Of a DNA stretch of 26,422 bases, positions 10,731 through 17,600 are shown piece after piece. A model generated the notes under the pieces. The model worked only from the letters and a program-made list of their open reading frames with translations. It ran no database searches and was not told the DNA's origin. The translations under genes and the position numbers were made by a program. Origin of the DNA: a virus (taxonomy: Duplodnaviria > Heunggongvirae > Uroviricota > Caudoviricetes); the IMG/VR virus record IMGVR_UViG_2541047936_000001; one strand, written 5' to 3'. The number at the start of each line of letters is the position of its first letter. Position 1 is the first letter of the stretch.

Positions 10731-11630
10731 ATGATTGATCCACTTATTAGAAACTTACAGAGTGATATTGCACTACTCCAGCTTTATATCGCGCAACGCA
10801 AACAGGCAGGCTTTCATGACATGGAAAGAATAATTGAGTCATTGACCATCTTTATGTTTCGCGCGCTGAAAATGGGTGAACTGGTAAACATGAATCAGAT
10901 TAAAGTTAATTTTCCCGCCATTGATTTAGCTGATAATAAAAACATGATAGCAGTTCAAGTTACTACGAATGCAAGTCCAGCAAAAATTAAAAAAACTATC
11001 GAATCTTTTGAGAAAATAAATGAAATAGGAGAGAGTCTGAAAGATAAATACTCTACTTTATATATTTTTGGTTTTTGTAAAGCCTCAAGATACCTAACTC
11101 CAAGTTATTGTAAAATAATCGACCCCAGCTATTTCGTGAATGAACTTTGCGATAAAGCAGATGAAGATATGGTCCAGGATATGATTGACGCCATTCGACG
11201 CCATCATGATTATACATCATTACATCCATGGAGTGATAAAGATTCACTCGAAATTATACTCAATATTATTAATCGCAATGCAATAAAACATCGGATGAGT
11301 TGCGAAGGCAGTCTGTCTGATATGCTCACTGGTTTAAAAGAAATTAATGAAGTAATTACAAAAGGAACAATTCAACGTAAGCAACGTTCAAAATCGATAT
11401 CTGACTTCAAAGATCAAAGCATGGTGAAATTTATGAGAGGTGTAATGGATGATTTGTCTGTTATTCAAGCCATAGTGAACAAATCTAAAGTTAACCAAGG
11501 TGATATGGTTTATATAAGCCATGAAGATATGATTAATATTGATAAATTAAAAGCTAAAATAGCAAGTGATTCATCAGAGATTGCAAGGCTAAATAATATT
11601 GATATAACACTAAATGTTGTTGATTTATAA
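10731..11630 (+). CDS. Cargo protein (299 aa), soluble; N-terminal ~125 aa resemble a SMEK-type N-terminal domain of defence-associated proteins; C-terminal ~170 aa unassigned
   Basis: ORF in ~33% GC DNA; motifs NFPAIDLADNKNMIAVQVT...KIKKTIESF; AAGGA Shine-Dalgarno. Confidence 0.7.
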   Translation: MIDPLIRNLQSDIALLQLYIAQRKQAGFHDMERIIESLTIFMFRALKMGELVNMNQIKVNFPAIDLADNKNMIAVQVTTNASPAKIKKTIESFEKINEIGESLKDKYSTLYIFGFCKASRYLTPSYCKIIDPSYFVNELCDKADEDMVQDMIDAIRRHHDYTSLHPWSDKDSLEIILNIINRNAIKHRMSCEGSLSDMLTGLKEINEVITKGTIQRKQRSKSISDFKDQSMVKFMRGVMDDLSVIQAIVNKSKVNQGDMVYISHEDMINIDKLKAKIASDSSEIARLNNIDITLNVVDL

Positions 11631-11944
11631 TTGTCGATTTAGCAAAACAGAGAATGCTTTGAAAGTTTCACCGAGAAATATTTATTGTGAACCTCCTTAT
11701 TGTTTATCGACTTTTACTCTCCGCTCATTGCAGTACTGTCGGAGAAGGCTACTATGTACAAGAAGCAGCTAACATAAGCGAGCATCACTATTGATATTAG
11801 GAAGAGTATATAAAAACTTCATGCTGAACCTTACAAAAGTAGGTAAACCGGCAATGGCCTAAGTGGCAGGGTCATGTTGATCCGGCACTGCCGAGCTAAT
11901 AATTAACAAGCAAATCACTCTTTCTAATAATTTGTTGAAATAAA

Positions 11945-12604
11945 CTAAATATGTATATGTTTACCAACAACCACATATGAACTACCTGCTTTGCTCCATG
12001 ATTTTATTATTTCTAAATTATTATCTGAGCATATTTTACTTACAGTATCCACATCTAATAAACCATAGTAGAAAGCATTGCGAGAGTTTTGGTATATATA
12101 CCCATGCAAATGTTTAATACCGCTCTCGTACCTCTTGAAATAAGAACTTTTGTATTGATTGACAATCAGTGCTTCACCATCACTCTTTAATAATTCTCTA
12201 ATCGCACTGAGGACTTTGTGAATTGTGGATTCACATGGAATTGCGGAAAGCACGTTTGCGCAAAGTATGAAATCATAATGATTTGTTATTTTATCTATAT
12301 TTTCATAAGAAACAATATTAGCATTCTTATAGTTATTTATCACGTAATCTGGAATCGTGGTTTGTACACCTCTGATAATTTGCACTCTTTCTAGTTGTCT
12401 TCTGGAATCTAAAAATGTCACAGTTTCAAATTTATTTACTAATTGTTCTGAATATCTAAGTTTTCCACATCCAAAATCAAGGGCATTGCCATTTTTATTA
12501 GTGCTTTCAATCTGTTTACAGAGATAGTTAGATGGCATAGTGTGCGGTTTCGCTGCATTTTCTGAACGTATGTTTATTCCATTTATTTTGTAATTCAAAA
12601 TCAA
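11945..12604 (-). CDS. Small class I SAM-dependent methyltransferase (TehB/TPMT-like fold); true start probably the second TTG (12598)
   Basis: Motif I ALDFGCGKL, acidic TFLD, YDFILCANVLSAIP, KSDGEALIV; no DPPY/NPPY DNA-MTase motif seen; GAGG 6 nt before second TTG. Confidence 0.75.
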   Translation of the reverse strand: MILNYKINGINIRSENAAKPHTMPSNYLCKQIESTNKNGNALDFGCGKLRYSEQLVNKFETVTFLDSRRQLERVQIIRGVQTTIPDYVINNYKNANIVSYENIDKITNHYDFILCANVLSAIPCESTIHKVLSAIRELLKSDGEALIVNQYKSSYFKRYESGIKHLHGYIYQNSRNAFYYGLLDVDTVSKICSDNNLEIIKSWSKAGSSYVVVGKHIHI

Positions 12605-12610
12605 CCTCGT

Positions 12611-13318
12611 TTAAAAAATATTGTTATTGTTAAAGAATTCTTTTATTTTGCTATCAGGTATTTGTCTTACTTGGCTTTCTGTTCTTGGTTTAACTGATGC
12701 TATGAAAATAAGGAAGTCAAATGCGACAAGAGAAATAATCCACAACCAAAGATTAATTAAAGAGCCAGTAACAGAGAATATATTTGTTAATTTGGCGATA
12801 CTTATTATTAAAATAGTAACAAATGCGATTACTGTATGTTCAAAGAAAACCCAAAAGTAATAAACTTTGTTCCAGAAAAGTTCAACGTAATGTTTGTCTT
12901 TTAACTCTTTAACTTCTGGGTAATACAGTTTACTCATTACCTTGTGAGATTCATCAGTAGTTAATTTTCTCGTAACGCCTGCAATTTTTGCTAATGGTTT
13001 AATAATTAAATGACTATCCCACATCTTCCTTATTCCAATAATTTTTGCTACATTATTATGTAGATCTAAAGCTCCACTAATTACTGACCAAAAAACTGAA
13101 GATGCAATTGGTAATATGCCAAAGGTTAATATCCATTTAATAAATTCCTCGTAGTCTTTAACGGGGGGGATATACTTGGCATTAATGCCAACCAATGGCA
13201 TGTAGCCATAAATGACTAATGATAGGTAAAATATAAATGTAGTAATAAAAGTCGCCTTATGGAGCATAGGCAACATTTCATTATAACTCTTTGGTGGTTC
13301 TAACATTTTACTCTCCAA
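12611..13318 (-). CDS. Integral membrane protein (235 aa, about four predicted TM helices), first gene of the operon with the methyltransferase
   Basis: Hydrophobic stretches TFITTFIFYLSLVIYGYMPLVGI, WILTFGILPIASSVFWSVISGAL, YYFWVFFEHTVIAFVTILIISIA, LINLWLWIISLVAFDFLIFIASV. Confidence 0.7.
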   Translation of the reverse strand: MESKMLEPPKSYNEMLPMLHKATFITTFIFYLSLVIYGYMPLVGINAKYIPPVKDYEEFIKWILTFGILPIASSVFWSVISGALDLHNNVAKIIGIRKMWDSHLIIKPLAKIAGVTRKLTTDESHKVMSKLYYPEVKELKDKHYVELFWNKVYYFWVFFEHTVIAFVTILIISIAKLTNIFSVTGSLINLWLWIISLVAFDFLIFIASVKPRTESQVRQIPDSKIKEFFNNNNIF

Positions 13319-13837: not shown

Positions 13838-14048
13838 TTTCATATTGGCGAGGTAACGGTAGTTAAGTAGAATTGCTGCGGGTGCTTGAGGCTATCTGCC
13901 TCGGGCATCAACACCAAAGGCAGATAGAGAAAAGCCCCAGTTAACATTACGCGTCCGGCAAGACGCTTAACATTAATCTGAGGCCATATCTATGCTCTAC
14001 ACACGTAGGTTAGCCTCTTACGTGCCGAAAGGCAAGGAGAAGCAGGCT

Positions 14049-14204
14049 ATGAAGCAGCAAAAGGCGATGTTAATCGCCCTGATCGTCATCTGTTTAACCG
14101 TCATAGTGACGGCACTGGTAACGAGGAAAGACCTCTGCGAGGTACGAATCCGAACCGGCCAGACGGAGGTCGCTGTCTTCACAGCTTACGAATCTGAGGA
14201 GTAA
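14049..14204 (+). CDS. hokD: Hok-family type I toxin (51 aa), HokD/RelF-like
   Basis: MKQQKAMLIALIVICLTVIVTALVTRKDLCEVRIRTGQTEVAVFTAYESEE; AGGAGA Shine-Dalgarno at 14035-14040. Confidence 0.85.
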   Translation: MKQQKAMLIALIVICLTVIVTALVTRKDLCEVRIRTGQTEVAVFTAYESEE

Positions 14205-16094: not shown

Positions 16095-16454
16095 ATGCGT
16101 ATAGAGTTTGTTTTGCCTTACCCGCCAACGGTGAACACCTACTGGCGGCGTCGTGGCAGCACATATTTTGTATCAAAAGTCGGTGAGCGTTATCGCCGTG
16201 ATGTGGCGCTTATTGTTCGCCAGCAGCAACTGAAATTAAACCTGTCCGGAAGGCTGGCAATAAAAATTATTGCAGAGCCACCGGATAAGCGCCGTCGTGA
16301 CCTGGACAATATCCTGAAGGCACCACTGGATGCACTGACGCATGCGGGGCTGCTCATAGACGACGAGCAGTTTGATGAAATTAATATTGTGCGCGGTCAG
16401 CTTGTTCCTAGTGGGCGGTTGGGGATAAAAATCACAGAACTGGGGTGCGCATGA
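16095..16454 (+). CDS. rusA: RusA Holliday-junction resolvase
   Basis: 119 aa with RRRDLDN catalytic-type motif. Confidence 0.85.
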   Translation: MRIEFVLPYPPTVNTYWRRRGSTYFVSKVGERYRRDVALIVRQQQLKLNLSGRLAIKIIAEPPDKRRRDLDNILKAPLDALTHAGLLIDDEQFDEINIVRGQLVPSGRLGIKITELGCA

Positions 16455-17140
16455 ATAACCAGTATTTACAGTTTGTGCGTGAGCAGCTCATTATCGCCAC
16501 CGCTGATTTGAGTGGGGCAACAAAAGGTCAGCTTGAAGCCTGGCAGGAGAATGCCATGTTCGATACAGGGCGTTACAGGCGTAAAAAAATCCGGTACCGC
16601 GATGAAGTGACTGGAAAAATGATAACGCGGGATAATCCACCAATCCCGGGAAAGCAATCGCTGGCGAAGGGGACGTCAATTCCTCTGGTCAGTCCGATTG
16701 AGTTTTCGACATCATCGTGGCGGCGGGCTGTTCTGTCTCTTGAAGAACATCATAAAGCCTGGTTGTTGTGGTGTTACAGCGGGAGTATTTGTTGGGAATA
16801 TCAGATCGCGATAACACAGTGGGCGTGGAATGAATTTAATACTCAATCCGGTACCAGAAAAATTGCAGGGAAAACGCAGGAACGCCTGAAAAAATTAATC
16901 TGGCTGGCGGCGCAGGCAGTAAAAGCAGAACTTTTTGGTGGGGAAGGTTATGAATACAAGGAGCTGGCATTACTGGTGGGAGTGACAACTAAAAACTGGT
17001 CCAAAACATTTACTCGTCACTGGGTTGCAATGAAACACATTTTTCACCGACTGGATAGTGAGGCTTTATTGTTTGTAATGAGAACGCGTTCAAAACAAAA
17101 GGCGGCATTTTCAAAGCAAAGTGTTGCAAAAGTAGATTGA
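16451..17140 (+). CDS. Late-gene antiterminator Q (QuuQ-like)
   Basis: Position after rusA and before terminator, tRNAs and lysis genes; ATGA overlap with rusA stop. Confidence 0.6.
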   Translation: MNNQYLQFVREQLIIATADLSGATKGQLEAWQENAMFDTGRYRRKKIRYRDEVTGKMITRDNPPIPGKQSLAKGTSIPLVSPIEFSTSSWRRAVLSLEEHHKAWLLWCYSGSICWEYQIAITQWAWNEFNTQSGTRKIAGKTQERLKKLIWLAAQAVKAELFGGEGYEYKELALLVGVTTKNWSKTFTRHWVAMKHIFHRLDSEALLFVMRTRSKQKAAFSKQSVAKVD

Positions 17141-17207
17141 AAGGCATATATTTCATGCAAATCTGATATTTTGCCGATTTTGTACGTGATGGCAAAAGCA
17201 AACAAAA

Positions 17208-17230
17208 CCCGCCCACAAGCGGGTTTTTTT
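17208..17230 (+). terminator. tR'-like rho-independent terminator downstream of Q (CCCGCCCACAAGCGGG + T7)
   Basis: Hairpin plus T-run read directly. Confidence 0.6.
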
Positions 17231-17350
17231 GTGCCACTTATCTCGGATAGACATGGTGAATGCGCTGGTGGAGGAAGCAAGGGTAATTTTTAACCAGGTG
17301 ATTCTTGAATGCTTGCAACATTGATTTCGTAACGTTATTATCCTGCGCCC

Positions 17351-17426
17351 GGCCCTTTAGCTCAGTGGTGAGAGCGAGCGACTCATAATCGCCAGGCCGC
17401 TGGTTCAAATCCAGCAAGGGCCACCA
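17351..17426 (+). tRNA. tRNA with CAU anticodon (Ile2/ileZ-like, or Met)
   Basis: GGCCCTTTAGCTCAGTGGTGAGAGC...anticodon loop CUCAUAA...TTCAAATCC...CCA. Confidence 0.8.
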
Positions 17427-17433
17427 TCACATA

Positions 17434-17510
17434 CCGCCATTAGCTCATCGGGATAGAACGCCAGCCTTCGAAGCTGGTTTCGCGGGGTTCGAGTCTCCGA
17501 TGGCGGTCCA
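17434..17510 (+). tRNA. tRNA-Arg, anticodon UCG
   Basis: Cloverleaf with anticodon loop CUUCGAA; acceptor CCGCCAT/ATGGCGG; CCA end. Confidence 0.75.
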
Positions 17511-17523
17511 TTATCGGTATTCT

Positions 17524-17600
17524 GCGTTTTTAGCTCAGCCGGACAGAGCAATTGCCTTCTAAGCAATCGGTCACTGGTTCGAACCCAGTACAACGCACCA
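17524..17600 (+). tRNA. tRNA-Arg, anticodon UCU
   Basis: Cloverleaf with anticodon loop CUUCUAA; CCA end. Confidence 0.75.

Follow-up and report, generated by a model that had tools for sequence, protein, structure and literature searches.

A probable self-promoted ileZ-argN-argO tRNA cassette in a toxin-free, partly decayed lambdoid prophage of E. coli

The stretch of viral DNA analysed here (the window; 26,422 nucleotides, IMG/VR record IMGVR_UViG_2541047936_000001) carries three co-oriented tRNA genes with the anticodons CAU, UCG and UCU, in the order of the ileZ-argN-argO cassette. They lie between the late-gene control elements Q, pR' and tR' (Q at 16445-17140) and the lysis genes (holin from 20979, endolysin from 21873). 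The features of the locus are as follows.

16445-17140, + strand: late-gene antiterminator Q, 231 aa (Pfam PF06323 Phage_antiter_Q, E = 9.8e-93)
17124-17152, + strand: pR'-like sigma-70 promoter match, TTGCAA-17-TATATT, overlapping the end of Q (consensus scan)
17204-17234, + strand: tR'-like intrinsic terminator, hairpin CCCGC-CCACAA-GCGGG followed by TTTTTTT (read directly)
17313-17341, + strand: pT, putative promoter of the cassette itself, TTGCAA-17-TATTAT (consensus scan; aligns with pT of phage 933W)
17351-17426, + strand: tRNA-Ile2, homologue of ileZ, anticodon CAU (ARAGORN; Rfam 72.5 bits)
17434-17510, + strand: tRNA-Arg, homologue of argN, anticodon UCG, reader of CGA/CGG (ARAGORN; Rfam 44.4 bits)
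17524-17600, + strand: tRNA-Arg, homologue of argO, anticodon UCU, reader of AGA/AGG (ARAGORN; Rfam 63.3 bits)
17616-17638, + strand: weakened remnant of a closing terminator, GCTCGC-TTTT-GCGGAC followed by TTTTTT (aligns with a 933W terminator)
17770-18202, + strand: TerB-family pseudogene in the slot equivalent to that of stx (Pfam TerB, E = 5.6e-10; PGAP)
18199-18366, + strand: DUF3927 small membrane protein, second gene of the slot (Pfam PF13064, E = 1.7e-16; PGAP)
18371-18543, + strand: STnc100-family sRNA element, right border of the slot (Rfam RF02076, 100.8 bits)
18681-20531, + strand: NanS-p-type sialate O-acetylesterase, DUF1737-SASA-DUF6645 (Pfam)
20979-21185, + strand: class II holin, first gene of the lysis cassette (Pfam Phage_holin_2_1)
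21873-22406: endolysin, in the lysis cassette (Pfam Phage_lysozyme)

An earlier note, made from the letters alone, had proposed a three-tRNA cluster at 17351-17600, and ARAGORN and Rfam return exactly the same coordinates and anticodons. All three matches lie 15 to 43 bits over the gathering score of the Rfam tRNA model, which is 29. The 3'-CCA is encoded in each of ileZ, argN and argO, and the genes are separated by spacers of 7 nt and then 13 nt. The note had allowed that a dedicated tRNA caller might miss these genes or assign them other anticodons; in effect they passed this test, since PGAP calls tRNA-Ile, tRNA-Arg and tRNA-Arg on identical DNA in E. coli ESBL 15 (NZ_CP041678), and likewise on the 100%-identical copies in the O157:H7 strains PV15-279 and PA2. 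A chance tRNA-like sequence or an annotation artefact has practically no probability left, being refuted by ARAGORN, Rfam, PGAP and conservation in thousands of genomes. Minimum free energy folds of the single tRNAs gave weak z-scores and no cloverleaf, the latter being usual for unmodified tRNA sequences, and cloverleaf stems and energies were scored explicitly in their place. A further tRNA gene of the window, tRNA-Ser(CGA), lies at 892-981 (ARAGORN).

ARAGORN labels the first gene of the cluster Met, because it cannot separate Ile2 from Met. Window ileZ is 98.7% identical to ileZ of 933W, and its identity to K-12 genes is 90.8% for ileY, 88.2% for ileX and 67.9% for metT/metU. Its acceptor stem (GGCCCUU...AAGGGCC) contains the pairs C4-G69 and C5-G68, which E. 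coli TilS needs (PMC1635315), whereas K-12 metT has U4-A69 and A5-U68 at the same positions. Its D stem, GCUC/GAGC, is without the fMet markers A11-U24 and G12-C23. Since it is closer to ileY than to metT and has the pairs needed by TilS, the CAU tRNA is, judged by its sequence, a tRNA-Ile2 gene, and it should read AUA once lysidine has been formed, with modification and isoleucine charging as the predicted steps. K-12 ileX and ileY share the C4-G69 and C5-G68 pairs with window ileZ and have an anticodon loop identical to it, but differ in having G27.U43 where the phage gene has A27.C43. Located at the upper end of the anticodon stem (window 17377/17393), this A27.C43 mismatch occurs in every surveyed phage copy of ileZ, and a non-Watson-Crick 27-43 pair seems to be conserved in the gene. 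For annotation, the CAU tRNA belongs under Ile2 and not under Met; ARAGORN and some phage records mislabel it.

The two Arg tRNAs have bodies only 57-70% identical to host Arg tRNAs. Window argN shares 92.2% identity with 933W argN but no more than 69% with any K-12 Arg tRNA retrieved, while window argO is 94.8% identical to 933W argO and 70% to K-12 argU, with which it nevertheless has the UCU anticodon, A20 and C35 in common. A20 and C35 are ArgRS identity elements in E. coli, and both genes have them: position 20 is A in the D loops AUCGGGAUA (argN) and AGCCGGACA (argO), and C35 is present in both anticodons, UCG and UCU. The UCG anticodon was found in none of the K-12 Arg tRNAs retrieved for comparison and, to our knowledge, K-12 has no UCG Arg tRNA at all. 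The ends of argN are unusual, with a C1-G72 pair and a U73 discriminator. The argO gene of 933W (L002 1796-1872) has G37 and G73 where window argO has A37 and A73; tRNAs for ANN codons normally have A37, and A37 is found in argO of the window and of most surveyed copies.

Divergence from the host of this kind could be read as counter-defence, with the phage tRNAs replacing host tRNAs that are cleaved or depleted in infection, for example by Arg/Lys anticodon nucleases. The 57-70% identity of the argN and argO bodies, the atypical C1-G72 and U73 of argN and the presence of Lys(UUU), Thr and Gly tRNAs in variant cassettes all agree with this, circumstantially. However, ileZ matches host ileY at 91% identity and throughout the anticodon loop, so that a nuclease recognising ileY would act on it as well. 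The choice of these three anticodons is, moreover, already explained by codon enrichment (below). We therefore consider counter-defence very unlikely, and favour codon supply.

Neither argN nor argO has fully paired stems in the window. The D stem of argN has a C11.A24 mismatch and the acceptor stem of argO a U6.C67 mismatch, both specific to the lineage. The cloverleaf energy of argN is -21.6 kcal/mol, versus -28.3 to -31.3 kcal/mol in mismatch-free alleles, and that of argO is -15.2 versus -22.0 kcal/mol. Rfam scores are likewise lower than for the 933W genes, at 44.4 versus 54.8 bits for argN and 63.3 versus 68.1 bits for argO. Given the mismatches and the lower scores, both Arg tRNAs may work poorly; a single stem mismatch in a tRNA is, however, often tolerated, and one mismatch is no proof of lost function. 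Thus the tRNA cluster described in the earlier note is real, but the stem mismatches in argN and argO had been overlooked.

Upstream of the cluster, Q (named bacteriophage antitermination protein Q by PGAP in identical DNA) ends 210 nt before the first tRNA gene. From its position, which is like that of the annotated pR' of 933W, we infer that the promoter match at 17124-17152 is pR', and the hairpin at 17204-17234 is assigned as a tR'-like terminator by analogy with the 933W terminators upstream of the tRNAs; the terminator scan reports this hairpin on the - strand. The pT sequence is followed by a GC-rich discriminator, CCTGCGCC, and 9 nt separate its -10 hexamer from the first tRNA. Among 155 cassette loci, the -10 sequence TATTAT is kept in 138 and the -35 sequence is TTGCAG, TTGCAA or TTGCGG in 124, while in nearly every one of them the DNA at -240 to -61 bears no relation to that of the window. 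A conserved pT with unrelated flanks therefore points to a discrete, self-promoted module, which evidently recombines independently of the type of Q upstream and of the cargo downstream. The description of the tRNAs as lying immediately downstream of Q and tR' was thus roughly right, but it omitted the cassette's own promoter. At the other end of the module, two substitutions in the closing terminator remove base pairs, and the terminator scan no longer calls it. With these pairs lost, transcription from pT and pR' may read on into the dead TerB gene.

That gene is annotated by PGAP as a TerB-family pseudogene with an internal stop, and it has two lesions: a run of seven A residues (17788-17794) where intact alleles have six, and a TAG at 17906 in place of a Glu codon found in the intact 143-aa alleles of other loci. 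Together with the DUF3927 gene it fills the slot between the cassette and STnc100. Neither stxA nor stxB lies downstream of the cassette, and the reading as an Stx phage is rejected: searched by tblastn with Stx2A and Stx2B, the whole window gave a best E value of 1.5. The succession of cassette, slot, STnc100, nanS-p and holin is the same as in 933W, and so the statement that the next ORFs occupy the toxin cargo position is right by synteny. The STnc100 element of the window is shortened, in contrast to the full-length 933W copy (207.7 bits; L002 3278-3537), which directly follows stxB2 and precedes, in turn, the anti-sRNA AsxR (opposite strand) and nanS-p; AsxR was not called in the window. 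The window NanS-p esterase, of a type whose biology is described in PMC8065619, is 53.7% identical to L0105 of 933W over its full length, and the holin and endolysin genes are 89-91% identical in DNA to S and R of 933W. The cargo slot between the cassette and STnc100/nanS-p deserves a look in any such prophage.

The earlier note had taken the cluster to mark the prophage as Stx-phage-like. This does not hold: the 250-nt cluster is matched in 3056 of 5426 complete E. coli genomes, stx was rarely found next to it in the sampled loci, and the window itself is without stx and has a Q of a family other than that of 933W. In 2579 of the 3056 genomes the match covers at least 80% of the cluster length, a single E. 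coli genome has up to 13 cassette places, and 323 records are at least 99% identical to the 250-nt cluster of the window. We gathered IMG/VR loci by an exact 40-nt word of ileZ and examined downstream cargo in the 94 loci, among the matches listed, that had at least 1.5 kb of downstream sequence (the window and the three reference loci L001-L003 included). Among these listed loci, stx lies downstream in 8 of 94 (kinship between loci being ignored), TerB and/or DUF3927 in about 27 of 94, and in more than 30 of 94 the cassette runs directly into nanS-p. As a module the cassette is widespread among E. coli lambdoid prophages, and it is no marker of Stx phages; taken alone, it is no sign of a Shiga-toxin phage.

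To examine codon use, we counted AUA, AGA, AGG, CGA and CGG, expressed per 1000 codons. The combined rate of the five is 12.2 in 38 K-12 core genes, 43.8 in 20 early prophage genes, 35.8 in 20 late prophage genes and 68.6 in 933W stx2AB, where AUA alone reaches 36.8. The five codons are thus about three times commoner in prophage genes than in K-12 core genes, and every one of them is enriched (odds ratios 2.0-6.8, p <= 3e-4). As a general rule, the tRNAs that phages carry correspond to codons used heavily in the phage but rarely in its host (PMC4032129). The proposal that the cluster supplies tRNAs for rare codons fits these counts, and codon supply is most likely the role of the cassette, as far as codon statistics can indicate it. 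Against this role, nanS-p, downstream of the cassette, uses neither CGA nor CGG, and the benefit would be quantitative except for the UCG anticodon, because the host has ileX/ileY, argU, argW and argX. We conclude that 17313-17649 of the window is very probably an ileZ-argN-argO cassette acting as a self-promoted codon-supply module of E. coli lambdoid prophages.

The mechanism we infer for the cassette runs from transcription through processing, modification and charging to a translational benefit. Transcription from pT would yield a single precursor of all three tRNAs, and Q-modified RNA polymerase would also read through to them from pR' after induction. Host RNase P and 3' processing enzymes would cut the precursor, host TilS would convert the CAU tRNA to its lysidine form, isoleucine charging would follow, and with the three tRNAs more decoding capacity would be available for AUA, CGA/CGG and AGA/AGG. 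No data on expression or function of the cassette were found in the searchable literature.

Another way to view the cassette is as a moron of benefit to the host, expressed continuously from pT in the lysogen and aiding acquired host genes rich in rare codons rather than the late genes of the phage. An own promoter and terminator are the layout described for morons (PMC8065619), and the cassette has a conserved promoter of its own, with a GC-rich discriminator, as well as its own terminator. More than half of the complete E. coli genomes also contain it, commonly more than once, and defective prophages such as that of the window are among its carriers. However, the cassette always lies in the late operon, before cargo of which stx2AB, at 68.6 per 1000, is the richest in AUA and AGR codons, which fits a role on the side of the phage; the two roles, moreover, are not exclusive of each other. 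A purely host-directed function is therefore possible but rather doubtful, and we retain supply of codons within the prophage as the preferred role.

The combinations of tRNAs differ widely between cassettes. In the ileZ-seeded survey they were distributed as follows among the matches listed.

Ile, Arg(tcg), Arg(tct): 61 loci
Ile, Arg(tct): 29 loci
Ile, Lys, Thr, Gly: 14 loci
Ile only: 5 loci
Ile, Arg(tcg): 5 loci
Ile, Lys, Arg: 3 loci
Ile, Arg(tct), Arg(tct): 1 locus
Ile, Lys, Thr: 1 locus

Allelic diversity differs just as widely between the three genes. Among the matches listed in this survey, 113 of 124 copies of ileZ are of one allele, the commonest argO allele accounts for 38 of 99 copies, and argN is hypervariable, with 31 alleles in 68 copies. 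A 40-nt seed in ileZ would inflate the conservation of ileZ, and the survey was repeated with a seed in argO; one ileZ allele was still found in 100 of 114 copies. The pattern indicates that ileZ is under strong constraint. The middle slot is unstable (L003, L014, L036, L046 and others): the body of argN is combined with a UCU anticodon (L036) or with GCG, a UUU 'Lys' derivative of it has compensated changes in the anticodon stem and an unusual C33, and a callable middle tRNA is missing from many loci. The allele of the window is common only to L001, L084, L089 and L121 among the matches listed.

Other parts of the prophage also vary or are damaged. A 1310-bp element of the IS3 family at 1878-3187 interrupts the integrase gene beside the serU tRNA-Ser attachment site; it contains transposase ORFs at 1932-2258 and 2255-3145 with an ALIL frameshift pseudoknot at 2213-2329, and is missing from L001 and from 99.9%-identical relatives. 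With its IS-broken integrase, dead cargo gene and weakened terminator, the prophage is non-toxigenic and partly degraded. The early region is of the Qin type, with the DicF sRNA at 6749-6800 (- strand, 76.7 bits), dicB and ydfABC-like genes, and a hok/sok toxin-antitoxin locus lies further on (sok at 13880-14054, + strand, 114 bits; a hokD-like ORF at 13992-14204). Between these, 10731-13318 carries variable cargo, comprising a SMEK-domain protein (+ strand), a class I SAM-dependent methyltransferase (- strand) and a 235-aa protein without a Pfam match (- strand). The prophage of ESBL 15, similar in other respects, carries a different set there (DUF5677, an AAA ATPase and an HNH nuclease), and the site may therefore be a defence-gene hotspot.

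These observations bear on whether the cassette of the window is partly a relic, in which ileZ alone still works and argN and argO drift towards pseudo-tRNAs. The stem mismatches C11.A24 and U6.C67 belong to the allele of the window, while most surveyed copies are free of stem mismatches (82 of 91 argO copies and 41 of 67 argN copies, among the matches listed), and the Rfam scores have dropped by 10 bits for argN and 5 bits for argO relative to 933W. The argN gene is hypervariable while ileZ is nearly invariant, and it is often missing or degenerate, 34-36 loci having Ile and Arg(tct) or Ile only among the matches listed. The surroundings agree, in that pairs of the closing terminator are lost, TerB has two lesions and the integrase carries an IS. 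With a stem mismatch in both Arg tRNAs, only ileZ is confidently functional, and the mismatches, the lost terminator pairs, the dead TerB gene and the IS in the integrase together make relaxed selection on the Arg tRNAs plausible. However, argN and argO pass the Rfam threshold widely and keep A20, C35 and the encoded CCA, and single mismatches in tRNA stems are, as noted, often tolerated. The exact 250-nt allele is, moreover, found at 100% identity in unrelated strains, O157:H7 among them, with 323 records at 99% or more, where rapid decay would predict otherwise. We therefore regard a partial relic as unlikely, and continue to read all three genes as a codon-supply cassette.

A related and broader proposal, which we offer only tentatively and consider improbable as it stands, is that the cassette is an independently recombining, self-promoted module in which selection differs greatly between the three slots, with ileZ (AUA decoding) nearly frozen, the middle slot switching anticodon (UCG to UCU, GCG or UUU) or being lost and argO in between, and that the lineage of the window is shedding both Arg tRNAs. 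If this were true, AUA decoding would be the reason why the cassette persists in over half of E. coli genomes.

Comparison with 933W (AF125520) gives a single block of similarity around the cassette, in which window 17313-17649 (337 nt) is 90.6% identical to 21082-21419, with unrelated flanks; against the 933W stretch, BLAST similarity resumes only in the esterase, holin, endolysin and Rz genes. The block begins exactly at pT and ends after the remnant of the closing terminator, and with the tRNA identities of 98.7%, 92.2% and 94.8% it bears out the homology to the ileZ-argN-argO cluster of Stx phages for which alignment with 933W had been suggested as a check. Stx2 phages carry three tRNAs near stx (PMC7946995; PMC3491183). 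The GenBank record of 933W lists, in order, Q, pR', qut, two terminators, 'pT; putative tRNA promoter', ileZ (AUA), argN and argO, then a terminator, stxA2, stxB2, L0105 (a yjhS/nanS-p homologue), S and R; the counterpart of 17616-17638 is annotated there as a 'possible rho-independent terminator upstream of the stx genes'. The cassette is thus already annotated in that record and routinely called by the NCBI pipeline, and the finding, though correct, is an ordinary one, of a well-known rare-codon cassette in a toxin-free, partly decayed prophage.

The window and 933W share the three anticodons, their order and strand, pT, the terminator and the place before the cargo slot, STnc100, nanS-p and the lysis genes. 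They differ in Q, for which tblastn gave no similarity between the two and which belongs to different families, and in the substitutions that create argN C11.A24 and argO U6.C67 and weaken the closing terminator in the window. A closer relative is the serU prophage of ESBL 15 (NZ_CP041678), which has the same serU/mtfA insertion site and identical DNA from Q through the tRNAs, the TerB pseudogene and DUF3927 to the esterase; it differs from the window in the 1310-bp IS, present in the window integrase gene, and in the immunity/cargo and packaging regions. The PPompW prophages have the Q type of the window and a cassette about 91% identical to it but differ from the window in that a derivative with a UUU anticodon occupies the middle slot and the cassette is followed by an IS110 element.
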